Shown piece after piece: positions 34,494-53,449 of a stretch of 64,000 nucleotides of DNA. Numbering within the stretch: the first letter of the stretch is position 1; the number at the start of each line of letters is the position of its first letter. The notes beneath the pieces are model-generated. The model was not told where the DNA came from. It did not search any database and saw only the letters and a list, made by a program, of their open reading frames with translations. The translations under genes were made by a program, and so were the position numbers. Origin of the DNA: Deltaproteobacteria bacterium (GTDB lineage Bacteria > Desulfobacterota > Binatia > Bin18); contig JAYVFX010001253.1 in assembly GCA_043772795.1 (NCBI GenBank), forward strand, positions 1,448 through 65,447, read 5' to 3'.

Positions 34494-35333
34494 ATGTCCA
34501 AAGCGCTAGTAGTGCTTTCTGGAGGGCAGGATTCCACAACCTGCCTTTTTTGGGCTGTCAATAAATATGGCGTAGAGAATGTATCCGCCGTAACATTTGA
34601 CTATGGTCAACGGCACCTCCGGGAGATTGAGGCTGCCTCAATAGTGGCCACACTGGCTGGGATTACACGCCACGAACTTGTGGTGATCGGTCCCATTCTT
34701 GCCGGTAAGTCACCACTGATCAATCCAGCGGAGCCACTGGAGGCTTACAACAGTTTCCCGGAAATGGACGCTACCATTGGGTCCCGTGTCGAAAAGACAT
34801 TTGTGCCGATGCGTAATGCCCTGTTTCTGACCCTAGCCGCTAACAGGGCGGCGGTCATGGGCTCCCGCAATCTGGTCACCGGAGTGTGTCAGGCGGACAA
34901 TGCTAACTATCCGGACTGCACCCAAGACTTTGTATTTCGGATGCAGGATCTGATCAATCAAGCCTTGGGCTATACGGAGTATGATGACCCGTGGATTCAC
35001 ATCGATACTCCATTGATTTTGCTTTCCAAAGCTAAGTCAATCAATCTCGCGTTGGATATCCCCGGCGCGTATGGGGCACTGGCCTACAGTCATACGTCGT
35101 ATGACGGTGCCTACCCGCCCACTGGCAAGGACCACGCTACTACACTCCGTGCGGAGGGGTTTAGAGTGGCGAATTGGCCGGACCCTTTAGTTCTTAGGGC
35201 AAAGTCGGAAGGACTGATGGAGTTACCTAATACGGATAACTACGCCACCGATAGGATTTCTGAAGCCCTGCGGGTGATTGGGGAAGACCTTGCCCTCGTT
35301 GCGGGTATTTCTCGGTGGTGGAAGGATCTATGA
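34494..35333 (+). CDS. queC: 7-cyano-7-deazaguanine synthase QueC (variant lacking the Zn-Cys cluster)
   Basis: PP-loop [44 protein letters not shown] match QueC; the C-terminal CxxCxxC region is replaced. Confidence 0.8.
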
Positions 35334-35923
35334 GGGATTATTCCCCGGTATCCCTCAAGGTAGCAGAGGATGCTGTCCGCACCCTATTATGCTTCATTGG
35401 CGAAAACCCTGATAGAGAAGGGTTAGTTGAGACGCCCATGCGTTTCCTAAAGGCTTGGGACGAGTGGGCTGCGGGGTATGAAAAGGACCCTCTCCGAATT
35501 CTCAAGACCTTCGTCGACGGTGCCGAGAACTGCGACGAAATGGTGATTGTGACCAACATACCAATCATCAGCAAGTGCGAACATCACCTTGCGGATATTA
35601 CCGGCTGGGCGCACGTCGGTTATATTCCTAATGGCAAGATTGTCGGACTCTCCAAACTGGCGCGCATAGTGGATCTCTATGCCCGACGTCTACAGGTTCA
35701 GGAGCGTCTAACAAACCAAATTGCCGATGCCTTGGTTGAGGGTCTAGCTCCCAAGGGAGTTGGGGTTGTCGTGAAGGCCACACACGCCTGCATGTCCAGT
35801 AGAGGCGTTGGCATTCAAGGTGCTCTCACAATTACATCCGCCATGCGTGGCGCGCTGCTTGAAAAGCCGGCAGCCCGTGCCGAGTTCCTATCACTGTGTG
35901 AATCTGCGGAGAGACAAAAGTGA
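35315..35923 (+). CDS. folE: GTP cyclohydrolase I
   Basis: ETPMRF..., zinc-site [43 protein letters not shown] motifs. Confidence 0.8.
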
Positions 35924-36077
35924 ACAAGTCTCTCTTTACAGGACGGGACGGTGAGACGCAAAAAGGCGGTTTCTTAAAGTCCGGCGAGTGCAAGCACTGT
36001 CACACAGTCAAGACACAGGTCCAGTTCTGGCACCTGTGGTGGTGTCCACTAATCAAGTTCATGAGGGTTCTAGACTG

Positions 36078-36581
36078 ATGCACACCTGTTTGATATCACG
36101 GGAAATTGGCATAGACATGGGTCACCGCGTGACCCATCATGAGGGCAAGTGCAAGAACCTGCACGGCCACCGCTATACCATTCAGGTTACTTTGGAGGGG
36201 TCCGTTGCCTCCAAGGGATCACAAGATGGTATGGTCCTGGATTTTGGGTTCTTAAAGGAACTCATGATGGACCTGATCGATGCCCCATGCGATCACGGCA
36301 CCTGCCTGTGGGTAGATGACCATGAACTCGCCCACGCTCTTGGACCCGGCTATGGGGGCGCGCGTAAGCAAGTCCTCGCAAACGGGTATGCTCTGACTCA
36401 ATGGGTGTGGGGCAAGCTGTATGTTCTAGACCGCGTACCCACGGCGGAGAATCTCGCCTACCACTGGTACTGTCGACTGGCGGAGCCCGTAGTAGAGCGT
36501 AGCCACGGCCGTGCCCGTATCCAGTCTATCAAGGTCTGGGAGACCCCGAACTGTTCTGCGGAATACAAACCCGGTCACTGA
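36078..36581 (+). CDS. queD: 6-carboxy-5,6,7,8-tetrahydropterin synthase QueD
   Basis: HH...CKNLHGHRY (CxxxHGH) PTPS/QueD signature; aligns to the E. coli QueD N-terminus from ATG 36078. Confidence 0.75.
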   Translation: MHTCLISREIGIDMGHRVTHHEGKCKNLHGHRYTIQVTLEGSVASKGSQDGMVLDFGFLKELMMDLIDAPCDHGTCLWVDDHELAHALGPGYGGARKQVLANGYALTQWVWGKLYVLDRVPTAENLAYHWYCRLAEPVVERSHGRARIQSIKVWETPNCSAEYKPGH

Positions 36582-36597
36582 TTTCCAACAGGTTATG

Positions 36598-36960
36598 AAC
36601 ACAGTGAACATTTTCCGTTCCAGACTCACCGTCGTTGCTGATAATAGCACGCCGGGGTCTAGTGGTCGGCTTTGTCTTCAACTCCCGGAGGAGATGGCCG
36701 GGTATGTTGGCCAGCGGATGAAGACCGTGGGCAGTTTCGGCAAGGACGGGGCGGTCATGTTTATCGTATCTGGAGAGGGACTGAAGGTAACGGCAAATCA
36801 CCAGATCTGGTTCAAGAATGGTGTACGTGACCACAATGTCCGGGAGAACTGGAAGAACGTGGTGTACATCCTTGAACAAAATCTCTTTGTGGTCACGATG
36901 TACGTGAAGATGGATACACCTGTTCCCGATTTGCCACCAGTGCAGGAGACATTGTTTTAA
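36598..36960 (+). CDS. hypothetical protein
   Basis: Internal ATG of table ORF 36511..36960. Confidence 0.25.
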   Translation, partial: NTVNIFRSRLTVVADNSTPGSSGRLCLQLPEEMAGYVGQRMKTVGSFGKDGAVMFIVSGEGLKVTANHQIWFKNGVRDHNVRENWKNVVYILEQNLFVVTMYVKMDTPVPDLPPVQETLF

Positions 36961-37244
36961 TGCCACGACAAATTAAGCCATTTGAAGCCTATGGCATAAC
37001 GAGAACTCCTATGGGCGTAATCCATATTCTTCCAGTGGGACAGCAATCTGTTCTCTGCCGTAACAAGTCTCAGTCTTTAGGTACTTGGACTCAACCATCA
37101 GTGAGCTTGAAGTGGGATAAAGTTTCCTCCGTTGTAAACTGTGAAGAGTGCGCGAAAGAGCATATAAGGTATATTCGGCAGCAAAGGATAGATGCTCATA
37201 ATGCATACCGCAGACGTGTTCGAAAAGACAGAAATTGGAAGTAG
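36960..37244 (+). CDS. hypothetical small Cys-containing protein
   Basis: 94 aa; C..C...CEEC pattern. Confidence 0.25.
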   Translation: MPRQIKPFEAYGITRTPMGVIHILPVGQQSVLCRNKSQSLGTWTQPSVSLKWDKVSSVVNCEECAKEHIRYIRQQRIDAHNAYRRRVRKDRNWK

Positions 37245-38159
37245 ATGAAAATCTACTTAGCAGGTGAGCGTGAGGGTTCCCGGAATGATACCATCAATAT
37301 TTGGCGCAATGCCAAACGTCGGTTGTTCTCCTATTATTATCACGGATATAAGACGGGTGGTACACCGTCTCAGCATATAGAAGGCGCTCGGACGATGGAT
37401 CTCGAATTGTTTCTTGACAGTGGGGCATTCACGGCGTTTACAAAGAAGGAGCAAATTCCAGTGGAGAATTATGCCAACTTCGTCAAGGAAACGGAAGGCT
37501 ACTGGTCGGTCTGCTCATCACTTGACGTTATTGGAAGTGGAGAAGCGGCTGCTGCAGCTTCGTACAATGTCTTCAAGCAGTTACGGGGATTGGGTGCTGA
37601 TGTTATCCCAGTTTTTCACGTCAGAGAACCTGACCACTGGCTACAAAGATATATCGACGAGGGCTATGATTATGTGGCCATCGGAGGTATGGTTCCGGAG
37701 TCTACGTCGTGGCTAATGGACCGGCTGGATCACCTGTGGGGGATGGTAATGACCAACCCCAACGGGAGCCCCAAGATCAAGACGCACGGATTCGGATTAA
37801 CCGTGTTTTCCTTGATGTTCCGTTATCCGTGGTTCTCCGTAGACTCGACCTCGTGGTTAATGACGGGCGTCTATGGGGCCTGTGTGCTCCCTACGTCAGC
37901 CGGCATCAAGCGCGTGTTCTTTTCGGAGCAATCACCACAAGCAAGGAAGCTCGATGGCTGGCATTACCATGCCTTAACACTAGTACCCGACGATCCTCGG
38001 AAAGCCTTAGTCGATTCAGTGCTCGAGAAATACGGCGTCACTGCGGCCCAGTGTGGTGAGACCTATCAGTATAGGGATATGGTCAATGCGGCGGTCTACC
38101 AAGACCTAGAGTCCATGGGCGTGAACGAGTTTCACATCCGGCAGGAGACGCTGTTCTAG
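37245..38159 (+). CDS. dpdA: DpdA-like DNA-guanine transglycosylase (TGT family)
   Basis: MKIYLAGER..., FLDSGAFTAF catalytic-Asp region, HGFG; embedded in the queC/folE/queD/queE cluster. Confidence 0.55.
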   Translation: MKIYLAGEREGSRNDTINIWRNAKRRLFSYYYHGYKTGGTPSQHIEGARTMDLELFLDSGAFTAFTKKEQIPVENYANFVKETEGYWSVCSSLDVIGSGEAAAAASYNVFKQLRGLGADVIPVFHVREPDHWLQRYIDEGYDYVAIGGMVPESTSWLMDRLDHLWGMVMTNPNGSPKIKTHGFGLTVFSLMFRYPWFSVDSTSWLMTGVYGACVLPTSAGIKRVFFSEQSPQARKLDGWHYHALTLVPDDPRKALVDSVLEKYGVTAAQCGETYQYRDMVNAAVYQDLESMGVNEFHIRQETLF

Positions 38160-38575
38160 TGAAAACTGTTTACCTTGCTGGCCCAATCGCCGGCTGCACG
38201 GATGAGGAAAACTACGGCTGGCGCCGCGAGGTCAAACTCAAGCTCCGGGATCAGCTCCGATTCCTGGATCCCACGGACCGAGACTACCGTGGCTATGACC
38301 GTCATACTGGTGCTGGTCTCATGCGACCGGAAGATTGCACCAAGCTCGTAGAGGACGATATTGCCGATATTAAGGCATGCGACATCATGTTCGCGTATGC
38401 GTGGAAAACATCTACGGGAACGTCGATGGAGTATGTCTACGCCAGGAAATATCTCAAGATCGTTGTGTCTGTGTGCCCGGAACAATACATTAGTCCTTGG
38501 ATCCAGTACCACTCGGACTATGTAGTTAAGGGCCTTCGGGAAGGTATATCGGTTCTTTTTGATCTTAATTTCTAA
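38159..38575 (+). CDS. nucleoside 2-deoxyribosyltransferase-like protein
   Basis: GTG start; VYLAGPI motif characteristic of the NDT/Rcl fold. Confidence 0.45.
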   Translation: MKTVYLAGPIAGCTDEENYGWRREVKLKLRDQLRFLDPTDRDYRGYDRHTGAGLMRPEDCTKLVEDDIADIKACDIMFAYAWKTSTGTSMEYVYARKYLKIVVSVCPEQYISPWIQYHSDYVVKGLREGISVLFDLNF

Positions 38576-39579
38576 TGGCCACCATCAAAGATTGTGATCT
38601 CCTGGCCCGCGTTAAGTGGATTACTGATGCGGTATCCAGTACTAACCTTGGGTTGCCAGCGCTTCATAGCTACCTTATCCGTGGCGGTAATATCCATGCA
38701 ACTGACGGTCGGATGGTGGTGGGTACACCATTTCCCTTCGAGGGTGATGTACTGGTGCCCGCCAAAGAATTCGAGCGGGTACTTGCTAACCGTCCCGATG
38801 GCGACTTCTCTTGGGAATTCGAAACAGACCGAATTGTTCTTAAACGAGGCCGCTTTCGCGGACGCATTAAAACATTATCAACTGAAGCATGGGTCTATCC
38901 CACTAGTCTTCCCGACGGTCTTTCTGATCTCCCCGAAGGTCTTATAGAGTCATTGCGGTGTCTCCTCCCCTTTTGCTCCGAAAACGCGACAAAGCCGTGG
39001 GCCACTTGTATCGGCATCATCGGTCCCTACCTGTACGCCTCCAATAACATCGTCGTAGCCCGGACTCGCTGCACGACTGGGCTAGCAGTCCCTGAATTCC
39101 TCCTACCACGGTGGGCGGCAGAGTTTGTAGTCAAGAGAGAGGAGGGTCTGGTGGCGTGGGCTTGTGAAGATACCAAGGCTACGTTCATGTGGGAGGACGG
39201 GTCTTGGATGCGGAGCAACCTAGTTGACGCTCAGTACCCACCTGTTCAGAAAGTTCTGGACGCTCATTTTAAAGGCGACATAGATGTTGAGATTACTGAT
39301 GCGTGGCGCAAGACAGTTCTTCGTGTCGGTCGTACTACAGAGGACCCCGTCATTAGGCTTCGCGCTGACGAGGTGCGTGGTGCTAATGGTGAAGTTCTTT
39401 CTGTTGAAGATGAGGCAGGTACGCCTTGCCCAGAGGGACTCGAAGAAACAGTTTGGGATCTTCGCTACCTTGAGGACGTTATTAAGATCGCCACTCATTG
39501 GAATCCCCGGACCTACCCCGCCCCCGCCCCGTGGCGAGGAGAGTGGGTCGAAGGAATCATAGCGGCACGCCGCGATTAA
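38575..39579 (+). CDS. DnaN-like DNA polymerase sliding clamp (putative)
   Basis: N-terminal pattern parallels beta-clamp domain I (LL..V..AV....P.L....L.......ATDG...V...........VLVPAKEF..VL..LPDG); 334 aa. Confidence 0.45.
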   Translation: MATIKDCDLLARVKWITDAVSSTNLGLPALHSYLIRGGNIHATDGRMVVGTPFPFEGDVLVPAKEFERVLANRPDGDFSWEFETDRIVLKRGRFRGRIKTLSTEAWVYPTSLPDGLSDLPEGLIESLRCLLPFCSENATKPWATCIGIIGPYLYASNNIVVARTRCTTGLAVPEFLLPRWAAEFVVKREEGLVAWACEDTKATFMWEDGSWMRSNLVDAQYPPVQKVLDAHFKGDIDVEITDAWRKTVLRVGRTTEDPVIRLRADEVRGANGEVLSVEDEAGTPCPEGLEETVWDLRYLEDVIKIATHWNPRTYPAPAPWRGEWVEGIIAARRD

Positions 39580-39581
39580 TG

Positions 39582-39827
39582 CCCATGATAGAAGAATCTA
39601 GATGCTTGGCATGTAATGTCAAGTTTCTTTGGGATCCAGCCAAAGAAGCAAAAGCCGCAAGACTTCTCTGTTCCGGGGACTGGGAAGGCATGCGCAAGTA
39701 TTATGTGAAACATGGCTTCGTGATTACGGGCCAGCGGTACTTTGACGACCATGTCTGGAACTACCTCACCCACCTAGAGGCCATGAGGCGGAAAAATGTT
39801 CGGGCAGAATCCAGTAGCAAAGAATGA
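39582..39827 (+). CDS. hypothetical protein
   Basis: Internal ATG of table ORF 39498..39827. Confidence 0.2.
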   Translation, partial: PMIEESRCLACNVKFLWDPAKEAKAARLLCSGDWEGMRKYYVKHGFVITGQRYFDDHVWNYLTHLEAMRRKNVRAESSSKE

Positions 39828-40503
39828 GATAACTGGCGACGGCCTTGAACTTCGGGTCGTTAACGGGGCACCGTGGTACACCTTGCAGGGCGAGGGACCA
39901 TTCGCCGGGGATGGTGCGGTCTTTCTACGCCTACATGGGTGCCCGTTGCGGTGTTTCTTCTGTGATACTGAATTCAGCAACCCAGCGGACCCCGTGGTCA
40001 ATGTTGGGGATCTTGCGGACATGATTGAGGCGGCGGCTCCCGGTTGGTGCAAGCTACTCGTCATCACCGGAGGGGAACCTGTGCGGCAGAATCTCGCCCC
40101 GTTGATCAACATTATGATCCGGGACGGGTGGACGGTACAGATTGAAACCTCTGGCATTCTGTGGCAAGATTGTCTTACGGATACAGTCATTATCTGTTCC
40201 CCCAAGACTCCTACAATCCACGAAAAGATTCGTGTCCACGCCCACGGGTTCAAGTACGTGATACAAGCAGGACATGTGGACGATGAAGATGGACTACCAC
40301 TGACCAATACTCAGGATGAGGGTGGGAAGACACATCGGTTAGCCCGTCCAAAGCCGGGGACACTGGTTCCGATATATCTGAGTCCCATGGATGAGTGTGA
40401 TCGAATCGCCAATGAGGCGAACATGGCCGAAGTCGGACGCATTGCCATGAAATACGGGTACCGAGCTGGCGTCCAGCTCCACAAGTTGATGGGGTTGCCG
40501 TGA
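39796..40503 (+). CDS. queE: 7-carboxy-7-deazaguanine synthase QueE (radical SAM)
   Basis: TLQGEG...FLRLHGCPLRCFFCDT (Cx3Cx2C radical-SAM cluster in QueE context). Confidence 0.75.
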   Translation: MFGQNPVAKNEITGDGLELRVVNGAPWYTLQGEGPFAGDGAVFLRLHGCPLRCFFCDTEFSNPADPVVNVGDLADMIEAAAPGWCKLLVITGGEPVRQNLAPLINIMIRDGWTVQIETSGILWQDCLTDTVIICSPKTPTIHEKIRVHAHGFKYVIQAGHVDDEDGLPLTNTQDEGGKTHRLARPKPGTLVPIYLSPMDECDRIANEANMAEVGRIAMKYGYRAGVQLHKLMGLP

Positions 40504-40859
40504 GATTCCATACCGTTCAACTGCCCGCTGTTCTAACAGTGGAAGATATAACTGTGTTGCGTCACTACGTGACGTTGGACGACGGAACAGTTCATTTTCA
40601 AGAGGAAGAACTTCAACGGAACGGCAATGAAATTGAATCCCGTCGCACGGAGTGGCAACAGGTCAATACTCCACACGCGGAGCCTCCAGTCATAGGCCTG
40701 ATCGATTTCTGTGGTAGACCAATGGCCATTCGTGCAGACGGCCAAGCCTACATCTGGGGTCAGGTAGAAGTAGACCTCCCCGATGCAGGTAAGGCGCTAG
40801 TGGATATGTGGGCACCGTTCCTCCAGAAGGTGCCGATCGGTGGGCAAGACAATGGTTGA
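40500..40859 (+). CDS. hypothetical protein
   Basis: 119 aa. Confidence 0.25.
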   Translation: MRFHTVQLPAVLTVEDITVLRHYVTLDDGTVHFQEEELQRNGNEIESRRTEWQQVNTPHAEPPVIGLIDFCGRPMAIRADGQAYIWGQVEVDLPDAGKALVDMWAPFLQKVPIGGQDNG

Positions 40860-41601
40860 AGAAGTCCTCGACCACGGCCTTGCGCGCCTTGTAGATCACA
40901 TGGGCAGTGATCTATCCATCGTCCGTGCAGCTCGGGTCAGTTACGATGCGGCATGGCGCGCCGGGGAGGATGAGGACAAGGACAAGAAGCTGATGCGCCG
41001 GCTCTGGTCAGGTAAAAGCAGCTCCGCCACGTCGCTCCCGGAGCTGCCGAAACATTCAACCCCGTTTGAGTCTGTGACACTCACATTTGAGATCACGGCG
41101 CCGATCTTCGTGTTTCGTCAGTGGCACCGCCATAGGACTCAGTCGTACAATGAGCTATCCGCGAGATATAGGGAACTGCCAGAGATGTTCTACTTACCAC
41201 AGACTGCACAGATTGGCATCCAATCCACGTCCAGTAAACAGGGTCGGGAAGAGGGGGCGTATGCTGTCACCAGAGAACAAGAGCTGGAACTTGTGGATTC
41301 TCACTGTAAAGGCTCCTTTCGTCTTTATCACGCATTGCTCCTTTCTGGCTGGCCCAAGGAACTGGCTCGTATCGTGCTTCCCTTTGGCACGTATAGCCAT
41401 ATGTTCACGACCATGAATCTCCTGAACTTCTTCAAGTTCGCAAGTCTCCGGTGTGATCCTCATGCGCAGTATGAGATTCGGGTCTATGCTGAAGCTATGG
41501 TACGGATGGTAGAGGTAATCGCTCCCATTGCCACATCATTATTTCGGGAAGCTAACGCTATTCCGATGAAGATGTATCTCGATGGCACGAAAGCGCCGTA
41601 G
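40840..41601 (+). CDS. thyX: flavin-dependent thymidylate synthase ThyX
   Basis: ThyX signature RQWHRHRTQSYNELSARY (RHRxxxxxxxS). Confidence 0.75.
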   Translation: MGKTMVEEVLDHGLARLVDHMGSDLSIVRAARVSYDAAWRAGEDEDKDKKLMRRLWSGKSSSATSLPELPKHSTPFESVTLTFEITAPIFVFRQWHRHRTQSYNELSARYRELPEMFYLPQTAQIGIQSTSSKQGREEGAYAVTREQELELVDSHCKGSFRLYHALLLSGWPKELARIVLPFGTYSHMFTTMNLLNFFKFASLRCDPHAQYEIRVYAEAMVRMVEVIAPIATSLFREANAIPMKMYLDGTKAP

Positions 41602-42492: not shown

Positions 42493-42795
42493 GTGAAACA
42501 GGTACCACGAGAAATCATTAGTGGTCGCCTATGGCCCATGACCGTTTCTGGTCATGGTCTTGTAGTCCCAATAACAGACCAAGAAGCCCTCGGATTCCAG
42601 CCGGGTGAAGTTGTCCTAGTAATGAGTCCGACCGGACTCAAACCTATGACGGTCACGGAGCAGCGGTTTGGTGTCACCGAGGACAGTGAAAGAATGCCCT
42701 TTGAAGTCCCGGTCTTAGATGGGCAAATCTATAACGGACCCGTAATGGCTTGGGCCATCCCGGATTGTTACCAAGTTGAGATCATACAGCTGTGA
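42493..42795 (+). CDS. hypothetical protein
   Basis: 100 aa. Confidence 0.25.
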   Translation: MKQVPREIISGRLWPMTVSGHGLVVPITDQEALGFQPGEVVLVMSPTGLKPMTVTEQRFGVTEDSERMPFEVPVLDGQIYNGPVMAWAIPDCYQVEIIQL

Positions 42796-44732
42796 TAGGT
42801 AAGTTCGGCGACGAGGATGGACTTTTGTGGTTACCTCCCCCTGCGGCAGTGCGCATTCGTGGCGCCACGGGGGTGCGGCAGCCCCGTATACACGTTCCAA
42901 GGGGTCCACTCCCGGAGTCCGATTGGGCTGCCCACTTAGATTTTCCTAGGCTGCATGGGCTAGTAGCTCTTGACTTTGAAACCCACGACCCTGATCTAGA
43001 CAATGTCGGCTCCAACTGGTGTCGTCCCGGAATTGGTGATGTTGCGGGAGTGGCAATTGCGTGGGCGGATGGAGAAAGATATTACCCCGTGGGCCATAAG
43101 AACGGCTATAATCTTGATAGAGAAACCGTATACCGCTATATCCGGTCATTGGCGGAGGATTCCACTGTCCAGTTTATATGCCATAACCTTCCGTATGATC
43201 TGGGATGGCTCTGGGGGCGTTTGGGTATTAAGCCACGCAATATACCGTACGACACTCAGTCTGCGGTGGCGCTCCTAGATGAGTTTCGTGCTCGGCATGG
43301 AGACGGGTATAATCTCAACGCAGTGGGCAGGGACTACTGCAATGTCTTAAAAGACGAAACGCTCCTGATTCAAGCAGCGGCCTACTTTGGTCTGGACCAC
43401 AAGAAGGATCTTTGGATTCTCGACCCAAAGTATGTCGGTCCGTATGGTGAGGGGGATGCAGGACTAACGCTTCAGGTCTGGAATGTAGTGGAGCCCATGC
43501 TTCGGGCTCAGAATCTCTGGAACCTGTTCCTGTTGGAAATGCGGTACTGCATGGTCATTACCGCGATGCGCATGGTTGGTGTGCGTGTTGATACTGACCG
43601 AGCAGTGCAGTATCGGGACGAACTAAAGGCACGAGCAGCAATTGACGCGGTGGAGCTTAAGAGACTTGTCGGCTTTGAAGTGCCTGTTCTGGAAAAGCCG
43701 ATGGTGGAAAAAGCACTCAAGGCAAGAGGTATTGACTGTCCTAAAACGGGGACAGGTCGTTTGTCAATTACCTCCCCTTGGCTAAAGACGCTCGACGATC
43801 CGGTCGCCAAACTTATCGTCAACATCCGGCGCTTAGATAAGGTCCGGGGTACCTTTATCGAGGGTTTCTTCCTTGAGCTTGCCACTAACGGCCGGGTATA
43901 CCCTCAGATCAATCCGCTTCCTACCGATGAAGCGGGGACAATCTCCGGTAGATCGTCTTGTACAAATCCAAATCTACAGCAACTCAGTGCGAAAGATCCG
44001 GAGCTGGCGAGAGATGTTAGAGGCTGTTGCCTCCCAGAAGAAGGGGCAGAGTGGGCGGCCCTTGACTATTCCCAGCAGGAACCAAGACTTGCCGTGCATT
44101 TCGCTTACCTTGCCGGTGTCCGGGGCGCGGCGACTGTGGTTCAGCAGTATCGTCGCAATCCAAGAACGGACTTTCATAACATGGTCAACGATTTGGCCGG
44201 GGACATTGGCAGAGGGCGTGCGAAGATCCTCAACCTCGCGCTGATTTTTGGTAAGGGCGAAGCCGCTACGTGCAAGGAACTAGGGTTCGATACTGAATGG
44301 GTTCAAACACGTTACGGTAGGCGTGAAGTAGCAGGTCCAGAGGGCAAAGAGTTTATTGAGAACTACCATAAGCTCGTGCCCTTTGTCAGTGGCCTAAAAG
44401 AAGCCTGTAAAAAGGCCGTCAAGCTTCGCGGCGTTATCCGTACCCTACTGGGCCGAATCTGCCGGTTTGGAGATGGTCGTAACAGTGACCATAAGGCCGT
44501 AAACTCGCTAGTTCAGGGCAGTGCCGCAGACCAGCTTAAAAAAGCCAATGTCGATATTTATGAGCAAACCGGGGTGATCCCTTTGGTCAATGTTCACGAT
44601 GAAATAGGCATCAATAAGTGGTCGGATAAACAGATTGATACGTGCGTAGAAATCATGGTAAATACGACACCACTCGAGGTTCCGGTTGTTGTGGACGTTG
44701 CCACTGGGCCTAATTGGGGAGAGGCACTGTAA
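42792..44732 (+). CDS. polA: family-A DNA polymerase with 3'-5' exonuclease domain
   Basis: Exo I LDFETHD, Exo II HNLPYDLGWL, pol motif A DYSQQEPRLAVHFAYL, motif B RGRAKILNLALIFGKG, motif C VHDEI. Confidence 0.8.
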   Translation: MIGKFGDEDGLLWLPPPAAVRIRGATGVRQPRIHVPRGPLPESDWAAHLDFPRLHGLVALDFETHDPDLDNVGSNWCRPGIGDVAGVAIAWADGERYYPVGHKNGYNLDRETVYRYIRSLAEDSTVQFICHNLPYDLGWLWGRLGIKPRNIPYDTQSAVALLDEFRARHGDGYNLNAVGRDYCNVLKDETLLIQAAAYFGLDHKKDLWILDPKYVGPYGEGDAGLTLQVWNVVEPMLRAQNLWNLFLLEMRYCMVITAMRMVGVRVDTDRAVQYRDELKARAAIDAVELKRLVGFEVPVLEKPMVEKALKARGIDCPKTGTGRLSITSPWLKTLDDPVAKLIVNIRRLDKVRGTFIEGFFLELATNGRVYPQINPLPTDEAGTISGRSSCTNPNLQQLSAKDPELARDVRGCCLPEEGAEWAALDYSQQEPRLAVHFAYLAGVRGAATVVQQYRRNPRTDFHNMVNDLAGDIGRGRAKILNLALIFGKGEAATCKELGFDTEWVQTRYGRREVAGPEGKEFIENYHKLVPFVSGLKEACKKAVKLRGVIRTLLGRICRFGDGRNSDHKAVNSLVQGSAADQLKKANVDIYEQTGVIPLVNVHDEIGINKWSDKQIDTCVEIMVNTTPLEVPVVVDVATGPNWGEAL

Positions 44733-44753: not shown

Positions 44754-44966
44754 ATGAGTAGAACCATTGACGTAGAAGAACTCGAACGGCTATCCGAAAC
44801 ATTTCATGCCTTTACTGGCATGATTGCCCCAACATCCGACGGGTATATTCTTGGCGAGTCCGATGAGGACTATGAAGCGCGCCGGGAACGATGGCTGGCT
44901 TTTTGCTCTGCTGCCCGACGCCCCTCTGCACCGGCACCCAAACCACCGCAAGGGTTATTCGAATGA
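44754..44966 (+). CDS. hypothetical protein
   Basis: 70 aa. Confidence 0.2.
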   Translation: MSRTIDVEELERLSETFHAFTGMIAPTSDGYILGESDEDYEARRERWLAFCSAARRPSAPAPKPPQGLFE

Positions 44967-45561: not shown

Positions 45562-46023
45562 ATGACAACGGCGGTAACTGAAAGACCGGCTGTGGTTTAT
45601 CTGATTGCCCAACCTTCCATCAGCCGGAAGAAAAAGCCAGTAAACATCACCCCGCTCTATGAACACGGCGAGGTGCGTCTTGTCCTGCCACAGGGCGATT
45701 CTCCAACCTTTACGCCCAAAAAGTGTTTTGATCTGATGTGCGATCGACTGTTCCCAGAAGAGGGGCAACAGTACGATCCTGACATCGATTACCTTGTCTG
45801 GGCAGGTGGTGATACCCTAGCGGCCCTTATGGCTGGCATGCTCTTGGCTGAGTATGAAATCTGGCATTTCAAGTGGCTGCGGTATGAACGCGCCCGGTTA
45901 TCAAATGGCGACCGAGTTGACGAAGGCGCTACCTACGTGCCTATCACAATAGACCTGTCGGACCCACAATTAGGCTTCGAGCTGGCCGAAGCAGGAGGAG
46001 ATGAAGCAAGTGACGATGATTGA
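45562..46023 (+). CDS. hypothetical protein
   Basis: 153 aa, acidic C-terminus. Confidence 0.25.
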   Translation: MTTAVTERPAVVYLIAQPSISRKKKPVNITPLYEHGEVRLVLPQGDSPTFTPKKCFDLMCDRLFPEEGQQYDPDIDYLVWAGGDTLAALMAGMLLAEYEIWHFKWLRYERARLSNGDRVDEGATYVPITIDLSDPQLGFELAEAGGDEASDDD

Positions 46024-46621
46024 CCTTCTCAGCGATTCCCCGGATAACCAACCTGTAGTTCCTGACAGCCCGGCACTCAAGAGTGTCAGTAAGCTGGCGG
46101 AGGAATACGGTCTACTTCAGGCGGACATTGCCACCCTGAAGGAGCGTATTGCGATCCGGGAAGCACGACTCAACCAGATCATAAAAGAGGCCATGCCAGC
46201 CGCCATGGAACAGGCGGGAGTATCCTCTTTTATCGCCAGCAATGGTCGTTCCATCAAGATCGATGAGATCGTGAACGGGAACATCCCGGCAGAGACTACG
46301 ATCGCGAAGGAAAGAGATCCTGATAAGAAGGCCGCACTAACCGCCCGTCGTATTGAGGCACTTGGGATCGTGCGTAGTAAATGGCCCGGTCTAATCAAGA
46401 CCGACCTGTCCCTGTCGTTGGGAAAGGGTGAGACGGAGCAGGCACTCCGCATCGCTGAACTGATTCGCACCCAGTTTAAGCTCAACCCGACCATCGACGA
46501 AACCATCCACCCGGCATCCTTGAATTCACACTTCAAGGAACTCAAGGAAAACGGGAAACTTGGAGACATTCCCGTCGAACCTTTTGCCCTGTACGTCGGC
46601 CCAATTGCGAAGATCAAATAA
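46001..46621 (+). CDS. hypothetical protein
   Basis: 206 aa. Confidence 0.25.
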   Translation: MKQVTMIDLLSDSPDNQPVVPDSPALKSVSKLAEEYGLLQADIATLKERIAIREARLNQIIKEAMPAAMEQAGVSSFIASNGRSIKIDEIVNGNIPAETTIAKERDPDKKAALTARRIEALGIVRSKWPGLIKTDLSLSLGKGETEQALRIAELIRTQFKLNPTIDETIHPASLNSHFKELKENGKLGDIPVEPFALYVGPIAKIK

Positions 46622-46635
46622 CATCGGAGACCAGA

Positions 46636-47658
46636 ATGCCGAAGGACAAGAAAGACGTACCAGCAGTGGAAACACCGGAACAAGATTCCACCACCGTAGG
46701 TGAGACCGAGATCGCCCAGTTTGCTATCGCCCCGCGCAGTGCTGGTGCGGTAGCAACGCTTGAAGACATCCAGACCCTGATGGTTCAGGATGCCGAAGAG
46801 GATCTCGGGTTCGGTAAGGATGACGTAGCAATTCCGTTTCTGCGGATTCTCCAGACGAACTCGCCACAGGTGAATCGCAAGAATGGCAAGTATGTCGAGG
46901 ATGCGGAGTCTGGGCAATTCTTCAACTCCGCCACGCAGAAGACCTTCTCGGGGGATGCCGGACTGTTTACGGTTCCGGTTCACTTCGAGCGGCAGGCAAC
47001 GCTGTGGTTGCCTCGCGGTGAGGGTGGTAGCGGAGGTGGGTTTGTTGCCCAGATCCCGCTCGCGGTCGCGGAAGAGCTTCTCAAGCACACGACCAAGTCC
47101 CCGAAGGGCAAAGACCAGACTCCGCCACTATCGGAGACTCAGGTCAAGAGCATGGACCCGAACAACACCCGTCCGATCATCGGTCTGGAGACGCCGAAGG
47201 TCTGTGAGGTGGTGATTTCGGCGATGTACTACATGCTCATAGTCGACAAGAATGATCCGGGTTGGAACGAGCCGGTAGCGTTTCCGCTCACGTCTACGCA
47301 GATGAAGAAGTCTCGGACGTGGAACGCCCTGATCAAGAATGCTCGGCTTCCGAACCCCAGTGGGGTCGGGTCGTATCGTCCGGCCATGTTCGCGTACTGC
47401 TACAAGCTCACCACAGTCCCTGAACAGAATGCGCAGGGAGAGTGGATGGGCGTTCGGATTCTTCAGGACCAACCCCTGATCAAGTACCAGAACGGTACGC
47501 CGACGGAACAGTTCCCCGGCGCCGCGTCCCTGTACCTCGCGGCTCGCGAGTTCAAGGAACTGGTCGCGCAGGGCAAGGTCCGGACCATCCCTGATGACGA
47601 TGCTGTCATTGATGATGGTGGTGGTCAGGGGGACGACGATACGCCGCCTCCGTTCTGA
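46636..47658 (+). CDS. ssDNA-binding / annealing protein with SSB-like acidic C-terminal tail (putative)
   Basis: C-terminus ...DDGGGQGDDDTPPPF resembles the SSB DDDIPF / T7 gp2.5 acidic tail ending in Phe; Gly-rich linker. Confidence 0.4.
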   Translation: MPKDKKDVPAVETPEQDSTTVGETEIAQFAIAPRSAGAVATLEDIQTLMVQDAEEDLGFGKDDVAIPFLRILQTNSPQVNRKNGKYVEDAESGQFFNSATQKTFSGDAGLFTVPVHFERQATLWLPRGEGGSGGGFVAQIPLAVAEELLKHTTKSPKGKDQTPPLSETQVKSMDPNNTRPIIGLETPKVCEVVISAMYYMLIVDKNDPGWNEPVAFPLTSTQMKKSRTWNALIKNARLPNPSGVGSYRPAMFAYCYKLTTVPEQNAQGEWMGVRILQDQPLIKYQNGTPTEQFPGAASLYLAAREFKELVAQGKVRTIPDDDAVIDDGGGQGDDDTPPPF

Positions 47659-47729: not shown

Positions 47730-49274
47730 ATGGATTTAAGCCCGAATGATGTTAAGCGGTTTGCTGCTCTATTCTCAGGCTACCAAAAAGCCTACGGCAC
47801 GTACCAGATTAGAAATCTGGCTGCCGACGGTAAGGCCATTGGCAAGGCTCAGACGCTTAGGGGCGAACCAACCGAATCGATTTATCGTGCGCATCTTGAA
47901 GGTGCCGGTTCTGGTCTTGGCATTATCATGCTGCGTGAGGACAATACGGTTTACTTCGGGGCCATTGACTATGACGTAAAGACAATGGACCACGTAAAGG
48001 CCGAGGCTAAAATTCGTGCCTTAGAGCTGCCCCTTATACTATGCCGCTCTAAGAGTGGTGGGGGACATTTCTATTGTTTCACGAAAGAGCCGGTAGCTGC
48101 CGGAGACATGCGGGATCGTCTCAGTGAGTGGACTGCCTTGCTTGGCATGTCGGACTCAACCGAGGTTTTTCCGAAGCAAACCACACGAGTGAATGAAAAC
48201 GATATCGGTAACTGGATCAACATTCCATATTTCGAATGGGAACAGACTAACCGATACGCTATACACAACGGCAAGATCCAGACATTACTACAATTCCTCG
48301 ACGTTGCTGAGGGGAAGCTGCAAACAGGCATTAGCCTAGACGCAGCGGCTGTGGACCCCAATACTAAGCTCTTCGAGGAAGGACCACCCTGTCTCCAAAC
48401 ACTGGAGTCACAGGGCGGATTCGTGGTGGGCACAAAAAAGGAAGGCATGTTCAATGTAGCCGTCTACCTTCGTAAACGGTTCCCGGACGATTGGCATCGG
48501 AGGGTGGATGCGTATAACAACGCGATGGCTCAGTTACAGTCTGATGAGGTGCAGGGAATTATCAAGCAGGTTAACAAGAAGGCATATAGCTACAAGTGTA
48601 AGCAGGCGCCGATCAATTCTGTTTGCAATAGAAGACTTTGCCGGACACGAATGTATGGTGTTGGTGCGACGGATGACATCGAGAGCCGGGGTTACGCTAT
48701 TGGTGCGCTCACGCGATATGAGTCCAGCAACGGCGATGAACCGCTCTTTGCCATGGAAGTTAATGGACGGCGTGTACTGGTTACCACGCCGCAGCTTTAT
48801 TCCCGGGATGAATTCAACCGTGCCTGTATAAGTCAGGCTAACGTGATTGCCGTCCACATGACCCCGCAGCGATGGCTTACGTTCTTGAACCAGCTTCTGC
48901 CAACTGCAGATATCGTCCCCCTTCCGGAGGACGCCAGCCCACTTGGTCAGCTATGGCAACACATCCAAATGTTCCTGACCGAAGGTGTAGTGGCAACTGA
49001 ACGGGAAAAGATTCTCATGGGTGTGCCTTATCGAGAAGGTACCCAAATCTACTTCCGTTCTACGGACCTATTTAGCTACCTGAACGGGCGCCGTATCCCG
49101 TATAAGTCGCCCCAGCAGGTATGGGAACTTCTTCGCCAGCGTGGAGGGGAGAAGGACGGATGGAGTATCAAGGGTAGCTTCGTCAACGTCTGGAAAATGC
49201 CTGCGCCGGTAAAGACTGAAGAAGTCGTAGAAACCGGCAATGGCACCCATCCCGAAGAGAAAGAGGCCTTTTGA
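47730..49274 (+). CDS. primase-polymerase (AEP / PrimPol-type)
   Basis: PrimPol motifs GAIDYDV and SKSGGGHFYCF. Confidence 0.6.
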   Translation: MDLSPNDVKRFAALFSGYQKAYGTYQIRNLAADGKAIGKAQTLRGEPTESIYRAHLEGAGSGLGIIMLREDNTVYFGAIDYDVKTMDHVKAEAKIRALELPLILCRSKSGGGHFYCFTKEPVAAGDMRDRLSEWTALLGMSDSTEVFPKQTTRVNENDIGNWINIPYFEWEQTNRYAIHNGKIQTLLQFLDVAEGKLQTGISLDAAAVDPNTKLFEEGPPCLQTLESQGGFVVGTKKEGMFNVAVYLRKRFPDDWHRRVDAYNNAMAQLQSDEVQGIIKQVNKKAYSYKCKQAPINSVCNRRLCRTRMYGVGATDDIESRGYAIGALTRYESSNGDEPLFAMEVNGRRVLVTTPQLYSRDEFNRACISQANVIAVHMTPQRWLTFLNQLLPTADIVPLPEDASPLGQLWQHIQMFLTEGVVATEREKILMGVPYREGTQIYFRSTDLFSYLNGRRIPYKSPQQVWELLRQRGGEKDGWSIKGSFVNVWKMPAPVKTEEVVETGNGTHPEEKEAF

Positions 49275-50740
49275 CCACCCGTAAGGTCGAAATCATCCTC
49301 GGTCCTCCCGGTACGGGAAAGACGACTCGTTTATTGAAGCTCCTTGGCAAGTACCTTGAAGCCGGTGGGGCCCCTGATCGAGTAGCCTTTGTGTCCTTTA
49401 GCCGAAGGGCTATCAATGAAGTCGTTGACCAACTTGGGCGGAACCCAGAGGAATTTCCTTACTTCCGTACCATCCATAGCACTGCTTACCACTTTCTCGG
49501 CCTATCTCGAGACGACGTATTTTCATTCAAGCATTGGAAAGCGTTTTCCGAATTGGTGGGGCTCCCGTTTAGTAACGCTGGGTATGAGGAACCGTTGTGG
49601 GACGGCACTGCCGGTGACAAATGCATCGCGGTTTACAACCTATCGCGTGCTCGTGGTACCGATCCAGAAACGGAGTGGCGAAATGCCATGCTGCCTAATC
49701 TGTCTTTGGACACTCTTCATGAGGTGTTGAAAGCCTATGAGCGTTTCAAGAAGGTAAATGCTTTGTGGGACTTTCACGATATGATTGTTAAGGCAGAGGG
49801 TGAGTTACCTGTCGACGTGATGTTTGTGGATGAAGCACAAGACACAAGTCAAGCACAATGGCGTTTTCTTCGGAGGTCAGCCAGTGGAGTCCCCCGTATC
49901 ATTCTTGCCGGAGACGACGATCAGGCAGTCTACGCGTGGTCAGGAGCTGACGGTGATGCTCTCAGACGGTTCGAAGGCCATCGTCGGGTGCTACCTCAGT
50001 CCTACCGGCTACCTCTTGCAGTTAAGTCACTTGCCGATGACATTATCGGGCGAGTCCATCGGCGCGTCCCTAAGCGTTTCGATCCGCGTAGAGACGACTC
50101 CGGACGCATTGTCCAAGGTGAAGTCACTTGGCGAAGGGATGCAGCTACCATTGACCTAAGAGGCAAGGAGACTTGGCTCTTGTTGGCACGTAGTAACTAT
50201 CAGCTCGAGTCCTATCGCGAAATGGCCCGGTCGCAGGGCGTAGTCTATACCCTCCCGGACGGTACGTGGTCCAATAGGCTGCCCGCCGTTGGTGCTGCAC
50301 TTACGTATGAGCGACTCCGTAGGGGCAATGAAGCGCCACGGTCCGAGGTGCGTGCCATGTTGGCATTCACAGACCTGAAATTCGAGAAGCTACCCCCGAT
50401 GGTGGTCTGGACCGATGTCTACGGTGAGGCTGCTTTAGAAGTGCCGTGGATGGATGGGCTACCACACATCAGCCCCAGTGACCGTGAGTACATCCGGGCA
50501 TTGCGCCAAGGCGGGGAAAGCGTCACCCACACAGGGCGGGTTCGTATTGGGACAGTCCATAGTGTAAAGGGAGCCCAAGCCGATAATGTCGTGCTTAAGA
50601 GCGATATCTCTGAACGGGTTGCTCACGGTGCCCGGTTGGACCCGGATTCAGAACATCGGGTGCAGTACGTTGGGGTGACACGAGCGAAACAGTCACTTCA
50701 CCTAATTCTACCGTCTTCCGCAACTTACTGGAAATTCTAA
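49271..50740 (+). CDS. superfamily-1 (UvrD/Rep-like) helicase
   Basis: Walker A ILGPPGTGKTT; motif II VDEAQDTSQAQW. Confidence 0.6.
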   Translation: MTTRKVEIILGPPGTGKTTRLLKLLGKYLEAGGAPDRVAFVSFSRRAINEVVDQLGRNPEEFPYFRTIHSTAYHFLGLSRDDVFSFKHWKAFSELVGLPFSNAGYEEPLWDGTAGDKCIAVYNLSRARGTDPETEWRNAMLPNLSLDTLHEVLKAYERFKKVNALWDFHDMIVKAEGELPVDVMFVDEAQDTSQAQWRFLRRSASGVPRIILAGDDDQAVYAWSGADGDALRRFEGHRRVLPQSYRLPLAVKSLADDIIGRVHRRVPKRFDPRRDDSGRIVQGEVTWRRDAATIDLRGKETWLLLARSNYQLESYREMARSQGVVYTLPDGTWSNRLPAVGAALTYERLRRGNEAPRSEVRAMLAFTDLKFEKLPPMVVWTDVYGEAALEVPWMDGLPHISPSDREYIRALRQGGESVTHTGRVRIGTVHSVKGAQADNVVLKSDISERVAHGARLDPDSEHRVQYVGVTRAKQSLHLILPSSATYWKF

Positions 50741-51943: not shown

Positions 51944-53449
51944 TTAAGTGACTACGTCAACTAGTGTCCCTTGACTTCGCGTGATGGCCACATAGATCAG
52001 ATTGTACTCTTGCTCAATCTCCCAGTCCTTTTTGGCCATAGGACTTGGCATGAGTTTGTTCCGGTCGAGGATGTATACCGTATCCCACTCCCGACCCTTG
52101 CTCTTGTGGACTGTACTAAAGGTAAACAGCTTCGGAGCTTCCCCATCTGGGGTATCCCCAAAGAGCTTGAAGATTTTGTCGCGAAGGTCCTTAACCGTGT
52201 CATCCTCTTCCATGTTCTCCATGATCACAAAGAGGGTGCTGACCTTATCAGTTAGCGCTTCAGCTTTCTGATCCTGTTTCTTTTCAAGGAACTTCGCGAC
52301 TTCCTTTTTTAGGTAAGCCTCCAGCTTATTCCGTAGCACATCTAGGTCGCCAGTCTGCCATTTTCTGGTTAGGTTAAGCAGACCTCGACCGATCTCCTTG
52401 CCTTCTACATGGCATGCAATACCACGGCGAATGAGAGCAAAGGCCTGTGAAACAATCGGCGCTGTGTTGCGACACAGCATCGCGGCACTGTACGTAAACG
52501 CCTCGGGCGGTTGGGAGGTGAACTGGGCTGCCGTAAGTCCCGCCACAACCCCTTCGGGCGCGGACTCCGCTGCCGTAATGTGGGACACGTATTGGCGGGC
52601 GAGCTGGACTACAGCCTTTGGACACCGATAGGTGACCGTAAGCGGTAGTTCGGAGCAGTCAAAGTCAGCCTTGATTCGATCAAGACTGTCGTTGTCTGCT
52701 CCGGTAAACCCATAGATAGCCTGCTTCGGGTCCCCTACAAAGATCGCCCGTCCACTCGGCATGAGCATCTTCTTGGCAAGCTCGCGGCGGGCGGGATTGG
52801 TATCCTGTGCCTCATCCACGAGCAACCAGTTGTTCTGCCACATCCGGATACCGTGGACCAACGGTGCATAGAGCATATCGTCGAAGTCCACGACCTTGCG
52901 ACACTGTTCATTAGATACTGCAATGGCGCTTATGGCACGGTCAATGCCTTCACGTACAAGCCCATCGTCCCCCTCCGGGAGCGACGAATCGAGATTGTAG
53001 TGTTCGATCATATAGTCCCAAGCCTCGGTATCGTCCATGGAACAGATGACACCAAAGGCACGGTTCTTGGCCATAGAGACTAGTCGGAGCACAAAGTCTT
53101 GCTGTGCTTCTGGACATTTTTGAGCGATAAGGATATTACTGACCTTATCACGGTCAACCACAGGCTTTGTGTCCCGGCAGTGGTTCAGCCACGCACGGAA
53201 GCCGAATGAGTGGAAGGTGCCGGCACGGACGTTAGCCCCTACCTTGGCGCCCTTCAGCTTTTCCTGGATTTCCTTAGCAATCTTGCTATTATAGGCGGCA
53301 ATTGCCACATCACCGCCCATCATTGTCGAAGCGTTGAGAATGGTCAAGGTCTTACCGGAGCCTGCAACAGCAACCAGAATAAGGTTGCCGGAGGCTTCCC
53401 TGACCCATTTGTAGACGGCTCTCTGATGGGGGCTGGGGGTGTGGGGCAT
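51944..53449 (-). CDS. UvrD/PcrA-like superfamily-1 helicase
   Basis: Walker A AVAGSGKT; motif II LVDEAQDT; C-terminal VHKSKGREWDTVYI and YVAITRS motifs. Confidence 0.6.
   Translation of the reverse strand: MPHTPSPHQRAVYKWVREASGNLILVAVAGSGKTLTILNASTMMGGDVAIAAYNSKIAKEIQEKLKGAKVGANVRAGTFHSFGFRAWLNHCRDTKPVVDRDKVSNILIAQKCPEAQQDFVLRLVSMAKNRAFGVICSMDDTEAWDYMIEHYNLDSSLPEGDDGLVREGIDRAISAIAVSNEQCRKVVDFDDMLYAPLVHGIRMWQNNWLLVDEAQDTNPARRELAKKMLMPSGRAIFVGDPKQAIYGFTGADNDSLDRIKADFDCSELPLTVTYRCPKAVVQLARQYVSHITAAESAPEGVVAGLTAAQFTSQPPEAFTYSAAMLCRNTAPIVSQAFALIRRGIACHVEGKEIGRGLLNLTRKWQTGDLDVLRNKLEAYLKKEVAKFLEKKQDQKAEALTDKVSTLFVIMENMEEDDTVKDLRDKIFKLFGDTPDGEAPKLFTFSTVHKSKGREWDTVYILDRNKLMPSPMAKKDWEIEQEYNLIYVAITRSQGTLVDVVT

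Follow-up and report, generated by a model that had tools for sequence, protein, structure and literature searches.

The deazaguanine gene cluster

The DNA analysed here, referred to as the window, is a stretch of 64,000 nucleotides from contig JAYVFX010001253.1, filed under a Deltaproteobacteria bacterium. It represents most of a 65.5 kb metagenome-assembled contig, and its content is that of a tailed-phage genome. Positions 34,494 to 40,503 hold five genes with a predicted role in 7-deazaguanine DNA modification. Four of them encode QueC, FolE, QueD, and QueE, the enzymes of preQ0 (7-cyano-7-deazaguanine) synthesis, and the fifth encodes DpdA, a transglycosylase that exchanges guanine in DNA for the modified base. 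An initial annotation had proposed this gene set from the sequence; each gene lies on the plus strand where it had been placed, and every motif quoted for it is found in the translation. Gene starts were refined with public gene calls on ENA ERZ27315198 (k141_6396467), which begin FolE at 35330 and QueD at 36078 and place a small open reading frame (ORF) at 36595–36960. The five genes, with protein lengths in amino acids (aa) and profile matches, are as follows.

34494–35333, plus strand: QueC-family 7-cyano-7-deazaguanine synthase, 279 aa (PF06508, 2e-44; PHROG 1550, 1e-53)
35330–35923, plus strand: FolE, GTP cyclohydrolase I, 197 aa (PF01227, 8e-67)
36078–36581, plus strand: QueD, 6-carboxytetrahydropterin synthase, 167 aa (PF01242, 4e-32; PHROG 2389, 4e-31)
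37245–38159, plus strand: DpdA, phage-type (DpdA1-like) DNA guanine transglycosylase, 304 aa (PHROG 887, 6e-48)
39796–40503, plus strand: QueE, radical-SAM 7-carboxy-7-deazaguanine synthase, 235 aa (PHROG 2076, 2e-39; PF04055, 1e-7)

FolE scores 209.9 bits against TIGR00063, over the cutoff of 181.6, and carries the zinc and active-site motif CEHH (within KCEHHL). QueC has the PP-loop motif SGGQDST and reaches 144.8 bits against TIGR00364, marginally under the cutoff of 150.3. QueD keeps the motif CKNLHGH (CxxxHGH) with its catalytic Cys intact; its match to TIGR03367 (7e-21, 74.4 bits) falls under the cutoff of 89.25 because the protein contains an insert of some 40 aa that has no counterpart in the profile. 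The five best NCBIfam matches of QueE are all QueE models (5e-22 to 3e-15), each under its cutoff, and the radical-SAM motif CPLRCFFC (CxxxCxxC) is present. FolE as a mechanical ORF starts earlier, at GTG 35315, and the refined start forms an ATGA junction that overlaps the QueC stop codon. ATGA, TAATG, TAGTG, and GTGA junctions recur through the block, where genes overlap by 1–4 nucleotides, and this tight arrangement indicates co-expression.

DpdA aligns over its full length with the DpdAs of Escherichia phage CAjan, Pseudomonas phage Iggy, Sphingomonas phage MMDA13, and Edwardsiella phage ZHS at 33–35% identity (CAjan 34%; Iggy 30–33% in a further comparison). Across 81 sequences, D58 (in FLDSGAF), H125, D162, H181, and D200 are invariant, and the FLDSGAF and DS.SW motifs are invariant between the window DpdA and the CAjan- and Iggy-type enzymes. 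H181 aligns with H187 of CAjan; a His at 'position 196' is absent from DpdA2 (PMC6884629), a published numbering that maps onto the alignment only uncertainly. DpdA2 is not detectable by direct sequence similarity to the 9g/CAjan-type DpdA. By tblastn, the window DpdA matched 237 phage records, 49 of which belong to Escherichia or Enterobacteria phages. An AlphaFold2 (AF2) model based on 77 homologues has a predicted local distance difference test (pLDDT) score of 93.3 and a predicted template modelling (pTM) score of 0.91. When the model is compared with the PDB by Foldseek, the 11 top-ranking structures are without exception tRNA-guanine transglycosylases (TGTs) or archaeosine TGTs (arcTGTs), with E-values of 1e-7 to 3e-4 and template modelling (TM) scores of 0.48–0.59 (1J2B, 1e-7). 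Judged by alignment and model, the window enzyme is a DpdA of the phage DpdA1 (9g/CAjan) type with a predicted TGT fold. The five assignments first made from motifs are backed by profile matches in Pfam, NCBIfam, and PHROG, and the weakest of them, DpdA, by PHROG, by alignment with phage DpdAs, and by its predicted fold.

The predicted modification and its alternatives

In the proposed pathway, FolE, QueD, QueE, and QueC would turn GTP into the free base preQ0, and DpdA would swap a subset of the guanines in double-stranded phage DNA for this base after replication. The route from GTP through preQ0 to base exchange by DpdA had been put forward in the initial annotation, and it is consistent with every profile and motif test. 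The resulting 2′-deoxy-preQ0 (dPreQ0) would shield the phage genome against restriction enzymes and further defences that target DNA.

Additional or variant enzymes lead to other derivatives in characterised systems. Gat-QueC, ArcS, or QueF-L gives 2′-deoxyarchaeosine (dG+), QueF gives 2′-deoxy-preQ1 (dPreQ1), and DpdM or DpdN gives methyl- or formyl-dPreQ1 (PMC6884629, PMC10516641). DpdL, a QueD paralogue with the motif LxxxHRHxF, gives dDG (2′-deoxy-7-deazaguanine); QueC* together with DpdA3 gives dADG (2′-deoxy-7-amido-7-deazaguanine) (PMC6884629, PMC10516641). A Pfam scan of about 50 predicted window proteins (about 10 structural and tail ORFs lay outside it) found no QueF, QueF-L, ArcS, glutamine amidotransferase (GATase), methyltransferase, or formyltransferase, the sequences of DpdM and DpdN themselves not having served as queries and several ORFs carrying no annotation. 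The window QueC has no GATase domain. When the QueF-like protein of MMDA13, the Gat-QueCs of Pseudomonas phage NP1 and Vibrio phage AL-2, and YhhQ of CAjan were searched against the window by tblastn, only the QueC half of Gat-QueC matched. The earlier observation that no QueF, Gat-QueC, or ArcS-like amidotransferase is evident thus held up in these searches. Two further candidates were considered and rejected. Pfam, PHROG, and tblastn speak against any Gat-QueC or QueF-L concealed among the small ORFs, and a role of QueD as a DpdL decarboxylase is ruled out by its intact CxxxHGH (PMC10516641). Since no further-modifying enzyme was detected and Iggy provides an anchor, dPreQ0, the product named in the initial annotation, is the best prediction.

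Iggy (Iggyvirus) encodes the same five genes and no modifier, and its DNA contains dPreQ0 only, which sits at GA sites and amounts to some 16.5% of G (PMC10484667). The QueCs of the two phages share 55% identity, and that of Iggy likewise lacks the zinc-site cysteines; FolE is 49% and QueE 38% identical, and the Iggy cluster also lies between helicase and clamp/DNA polymerase genes. The two clusters differ in gene order, which is QueE-QueC-QueD-FolE-DpdA in Iggy and QueC-FolE-QueD-DpdA-clamp-QueE in the window. Iggy QueC has an extra C-terminal stretch of about 100–140 aa. Iggy also has no counterpart to the NDT-like gene and the 121-aa ORF of the window described below and no ThyX in its cluster, and the rest of its genome is unrelated.

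CAjan (Seuratvirus, Queuovirinae) has dPreQ0 at GA and GGC (PMC6884629, PMC7544227), amounting to about 32% (PMC10516641). Like the window, it encodes FolE, QueD, QueE, a plain QueC, and DpdA1, with genes for a DnaN-like clamp and a polymerase behind them, and its DpdA shares the invariant residues and ends in ...ELF. In contrast to the window, its QueC (38% identical) retains the canonical zinc-site cysteines C...CxxCxxC, it encodes a YhhQ-like preQ0 transporter that tblastn did not find in the window, and its polymerase is annotated as family B, whereas that of the window is family A.

Enterobacteria phage 9g, NP1, and AL-2 share the preQ0 pathway, DpdA1, and a downstream clamp, but a class-II GATase is fused to their QueC, and dG+ was measured in 9g DNA; tblastn with the GATase half found nothing in the window. 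Campylobacter phage CP220 and Cellulophaga phage phiST share the FolE, QueD, and QueE chemistry and a TGT-superfamily inserter. They differ in using DpdA3 with QueC* or DpdL for complete replacement of G by dADG or dDG (PMC10516641), whereas the window QueD keeps CxxxHGH and its DpdA is of the DpdA1 type. The bacterial Dpd system (DpdA/DpdB/DpdC), which places dPreQ0 and dADG in genomes, performs the same base exchange with a TGT-fold enzyme. Its DpdA has marginal sequence similarity to that of the window, where no DpdB or DpdC was detected.

These sequence comparisons group the module with the DpdA1 clusters of dPreQ0 type in Queuovirinae-like siphophages, CAjan and Iggy among them. With a probability of roughly 0.75, an uncultured tailed phage here encodes a module that modifies its DNA with a 7-deazaguanine by way of DpdA, most likely in the form of dPreQ0. 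By analogy with the characterised phages, we infer that the end product would be dPreQ0 and not dADG or another derivative, that replacement of G would be partial and motif-specific, and that the modification would protect phage DNA in an anti-restriction role.

The sole defining feature of such clusters that the window lacks is the canonical QueC zinc site, which Iggy also lacks. In an alignment with the solved QueCs 3BL5 and 2PG3, all four zinc-binding Cys of the window QueC are replaced, so that C...CxxCxxC becomes S...T(x2)H(x2)T (residues ~199–223). The same loss is found in the QueCs of Iggy, ZHS, and MMDA13 and in that of L005, a metagenomic relative described below. These proteins have the replacement motif SHT(S/A)YDG.(Y/F)PP...(D/N)H...LRA.GF in common, which, at the level of sequence, defines a phage QueC clade that includes Iggy. 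Because Iggy makes dPreQ0 DNA with a Cys-less QueC (PMC10484667), the zinc site is apparently dispensable in this clade, although the hosts also have QueC and the argument falls short of strict proof. Together, the clade and the dPreQ0 of Iggy would mean that the zinc site is unneeded for nitrile formation, or that such enzymes act differently.

Several points weigh against a dPreQ0 module. DpdA is only about one-third identical to characterised enzymes, it has no Pfam match at E ≤ 0.01, and its match to the NCBIfam model of bacterial DpdA, NF041059, is weak (2.6e-4). Searches of PDB sequences with phmmer and with profile hmmsearch were not significant (bacterial DpdA 7UI4, E 0.74 with the profile), and the link to the TGT fold was therefore taken from AF2 and Foldseek. 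The QueC is atypical, with its four zinc ligands gone and its score just under the TIGR00364 cutoff, and could in principle stop at 7-amido-7-deazaguanine (ADG). Several small uncharacterised ORFs inside the cluster could add chemistry, and the end product is a prediction from the genes.

The genes that lie among and directly beyond the five are listed below. The initial annotation had noted an NDT-like gene, a clamp-like gene, and small ORFs between the pathway genes, and all of these are real.

36595–36960, plus strand: conserved 121-aa protein; proline-rich linker, C-terminal tail LPPVQETLF
36960–37244, plus strand: 94-aa ORF with no family match, fitting between the 121-aa ORF and dpdA (TAATG and TAG-ATG junctions)
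38159–38575, plus strand: NDT-superfamily protein, 138 aa (DUF4406, 1e-6; PF05014, 1e-5, under the gathering score)
38575–39579, plus strand: DnaN-type (beta) sliding clamp, 334 aa (PHROG 947, 3e-34)
39579–39827, plus strand: 82-aa ORF between the clamp gene and queE, with no family match and not conserved in L005
40500–40859: small ORF directly past queE, with no family match

The 121-aa protein has no Pfam or PHROG match. A 44%-identical homologue lies directly upstream of dpdA in L005 and L006, two contigs from IMG/VR whose DpdA is 81% identical to that of the window. Members of this family share the conserved core WKNGVRDH, and their LPPxQxTLF tail follows a proline-rich linker. The family is rare: an exhaustive profile search of 1.84 billion representatives returned about 10 small clusters, plus spurious repeat proteins, and no link to a known family. 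The 94-aa ORF, which is missing from the public gene calls and from both L005 and L006, may represent an insertion specific to this lineage.

These ORFs and the unusual QueC bear on an alternative in which the same enzymes make another product. The Cys-less QueC would stop at ADG, as proposed for Campylobacter phage QueC*, and yield dADG, or one of the four small ORFs (36595–36960, 36960–37244, 39579–39827, and 40500–40859) would modify the base further into an undescribed derivative. The state of QueC fits this alternative, as does the 121-aa ORF beside dpdA, which is conserved in relatives and has no assigned family, and surveys of phage clusters keep yielding new derivatives and enzymes (PMC10516641). 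However, Iggy QueC is equally Cys-less, and Iggy DNA is strictly dPreQ0 (PMC10484667). Full replacement by dADG goes with DpdA3, whereas the window DpdA aligns with the CAjan/Iggy-type DpdA1. The 121-aa protein has no enzyme-like profile match and looks like a small domain with a docking tail, and even the closest relatives lack the remaining small ORFs. A product other than dPreQ0 is considered unlikely.

The que genes could instead be auxiliary metabolic genes that raise queuosine (Q) in tRNA and so tune translation, with the TGT-like protein acting on tRNA. PHROG and GenBank label homologues of this protein 'queuine tRNA-ribosyltransferase', and TGTs are its best fold matches. Unlike TGT, the 304-aa protein has no CxCxxC zinc motif, no tRNA-binding (PUA) extension, and no Pfam family at the threshold given above, and it groups with phage DpdAs from dPreQ0-bearing genomes (PMC6884629). 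QueF, QueA, and QueG, which are required for Q, were not found among the scanned proteins. No tRNA genes were found in the window, and an Rfam scan of it gave no family at gathering score and hence no preQ1 riboswitch. Replication genes lie on either side of dpdA, whose translation is coupled to that of the clamp operon. A role in tRNA modification is therefore very improbable.

Equally improbable is a pre-replicative route in which the NDT-like protein would put deoxyribose on preQ0, the nucleoside would be phosphorylated, and the family A DNA polymerase (PolA) would incorporate it, leaving DpdA secondary. At its two ends, the NDT-like gene overlaps the stop codon of dpdA and the start codon of the clamp gene, and in ZHS a homologue is placed after dpdA and before the clamp gene. 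Its family matches are nevertheless under the Pfam gathering scores, and its best PDB matches, the CMP N-glycosidase MilB (4JEN, 3e-7) and BlsM (5VTO), are N-glycosidases and not transferases. The gene occurs in just three cultured viruses (four records), of which only ZHS is shown with dpdA. No nucleoside or nucleotide kinase was detected among the scanned proteins, and the deazaguanine insertions published so far are all post-replicative, via DpdA (PMC10516641). The NDT-like gene was also rejected as a core part of the pathway, since L005 and L006 retain the que/dpdA set, with an 81%-identical DpdA, but not this gene, and since its product resembles nucleoside monophosphate N-glycosidases. 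From these sequence relationships we conclude that it is probably an exchangeable nucleotide-metabolism accessory outside the modification pathway.

The DpdA tail and the phage clamp

DpdA ends in ...EFHIRQETLF, and the last nine residues form a candidate motif for binding the beta clamp.

38130–38156, plus strand: DpdA C-terminal tail FHIRQETLF (residues 296–304), candidate beta-clamp-binding motif

The 121-aa protein encoded upstream ends in the similar ...LPPVQETLF (36931–36957). Among window ORFs of at least 40 aa, these two alone terminate in Q..[LM]F, a pattern with four occurrences in about 17,500 residues of predicted proteins. The two QETLF pentapeptides are written in different synonymous codons, so their identity does not reflect a recent duplication. 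In the 121-aa family the tail is always LPPxQxx[LF]F, for example QLTLF or QPTLFG. A side observation concerns a 70-aa ORF right after the polymerase gene (44754–44966), which has no family match and ends in ...KPPQGLFE, a Q-x-L-F-like tail past a proline-rich stretch.

The tail is conserved in DpdA homologues, with F296, L303, and F304 each at least 90% conserved across 77 of them. Tail statistics were taken from the 120 best DpdA homologues, which are 46–92% identical to the window enzyme. Q..[LFMI][FWL] occurs in the last ten residues of 77 of them, compared with 1.6% of internal windows, and an [LFMI][FW] pair lies within the last six residues of 100. In most of the other 20, a short and mainly acidic extension comes after the motif, and with extensions allowed the motif is found in about 115 of the 120. 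The resulting logo reads F-x3-Q-x-[T/G]-L-F. One homologue, P0030 (58% identical), has QQMLF followed by a 26-aa extension that ends in LDEDIPF, like the C-terminal tip of bacterial single-stranded DNA-binding protein (SSB). The DpdAs of cultured phages end in RVMELF (CAjan), RIQELF (Iggy and NP1), MIQGLF (AL-2), QQGLFV (BcepGomr), ADLFS (MMDA13), and KQSLW (ZHS).

A DnaN-like clamp gene, annotated or evident, lies 0–3 genes downstream of dpdA in each cultured relative inspected, and in the window it is the second gene downstream. A phmmer search of the PDB with the window clamp found nothing, and its identity was settled by structure: the AF2 model (pLDDT 89) matches the E. coli beta clamp in Foldseek at 4e-19 with a TM score of 0.77.

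Pol III alpha, MutS, and MutL are clients of the beta clamp, and the eukaryotic Dnmt1-PCNA pair is a functional analogue of the arrangement considered here. The consensus for bacterial beta-clamp binding is QL[SD]LF, with QLGLF in Pol II and QLNLF in UmuC (PMC3716654). The window tail resembles these clients in having Gln at position 1 and Leu-Phe at positions 4–5, in being terminal or borne on a linker, and in being encoded alongside a DnaN-fold clamp. It differs from them in having Thr or Gly at position 3, an additional conserved aromatic residue at −7, and a residue other than Leu at position 2. This last difference counts against clamp binding, and so does the lack of a canonically placed Gln in the tails of CAjan, Iggy, and NP1. 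AF2 models the tail as coil, but residues 291–300 have a pLDDT of 94, so part of it may pack on the enzyme.

In the mechanism considered, the conserved DpdA tail would dock on the phage's own DnaN-type clamp and place base exchange right behind the replication fork. The 121-aa protein, with the same tail, would be another client of the clamp or would regulate the process. On the strength of these sequence patterns, it is tentatively proposed, at somewhat less than an even chance, that DpdA1 enzymes and the 121-aa family carry a candidate clamp-binding tail, ride the phage clamp, and modify DNA behind the fork in a manner like Dnmt1-PCNA. A full-text literature search for DpdA with clamp or sliding clamp returned nothing relevant, and term searches within two of the main DpdA papers, PMC10516641 and PMC10484667, were likewise empty.

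The tail may instead be a structural or dimerisation element or bind another partner, and that of the small protein might target the host clamp for takeover; the odds of such a non-docking role for the DpdA tail are about even. The high pLDDT suggests that the stretch may be ordered against the enzyme body, the conserved Phe at −7 lies outside the canonical clamp motif, and TGT enzymes are dimers (PMC6884629). A purely structural role is harder to reconcile with hydrophobic-x3-Q-x-T-L-F C-termini in two unrelated proteins, one of which has a proline-rich linker before the motif. The motif also tolerates C-terminal acidic extensions, including the SSB-like DEDIPF tip, and the DnaN-fold clamp gene follows dpdA within the same short distance in every inspected phage with the tail. 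If docking on the clamp is correct, the tail could explain how a post-replicative enzyme reaches tens of percent of its sites on DNA that is rapidly replicated and packaged. It could also explain why dpdA so consistently precedes the clamp gene.

Genome setting and significance

The window has the hallmarks of a phage genome: a homologue of the large terminase, identified by tblastn against annotated terminases, is followed by a major head protein and a tape measure protein. A replication and nucleotide-metabolism module occupies the plus strand from about 27.5 to 50.7 kb and contains the deazaguanine genes, and the minus strand carries a block of small genes. A search of 50,697 phage records by megablast gave no match to the 6 kb region, and no cultured phage has a large terminase more than 31% identical to that of the window; hence no close cultured relative is usable for comparison. 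An SNF2 helicase gene lies 5′ of the cluster, and two further genes follow on its 3′ side.

40840–41601: ThyX, 3′ of the cluster
42792–44732: family A DNA polymerase (PolA), 3′ of ThyX

The cluster layout is conserved in the metagenomic relatives L005, L006, and L007. L005 and L006 keep the order SNF2, QueC, FolE, QueD, 121-aa ORF, DpdA, clamp, QueE, and PolA, and they lack the NDT-like gene, ThyX, and the remaining small ORFs. In the slot of the NDT-like gene, they have genes for a MazG-like pyrophosphohydrolase and a HAD 5′-nucleotidase-like protein, recognised by sequence motifs only (L005, 11166–12463). More broadly, the succession of helicase, que genes, dpdA, clamp, and polymerase resembles that of Iggy, CAjan, MMDA13, NP1, AL-2, and BcepGomr. 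Compared with the characterised clusters, what differs in the window is the gene order with the position of queE behind the clamp gene, the interleaved N-glycosidase-like gene and ThyX, the family A polymerase, and the virus lineage itself.

Some further features of the surrounding genes were noted. The FolE of L005 (8111–9034; IMGVR_UViG_3300000033_000127) and those of MMDA13 and NP1 are extended at the N-terminus by a domain of some 110 aa that carries a phosphoribosyltransferase-like motif, IIVDDILDSGET; L006 FolE is likewise extended, and the window FolE has no such domain. The peptide FGDEDG[LV][LF]WLP is common to the N-termini of the window (42792–42850) and L005 polymerases and could be an interaction motif. 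Farther downstream, the ranges 45562–47658 and 47730–49274 hold three consecutive genes that match families like gp32, gp33, and gp34 of Pseudanabaena phage Pam3, followed by a gene for a protein with an archaeo-eukaryotic primase domain (AEP-TOTE). Two UvrD-type helicase genes converge at the switch of coding strand (49271–50740, plus strand; 51944–53449, minus strand).

Deazaguanine clusters were catalogued in 182 viruses in 2019 (PMC6884629), and many more have been described since (PMC10516641). The present finding is not surprising in this light, and it adds one lineage of uncultured phage to the many viruses already known to swap guanine for a 7-deazaguanine. It is of use for annotation and for predicting the resistance of phage DNA to restriction, to Cas9, and to sequencing chemistries.

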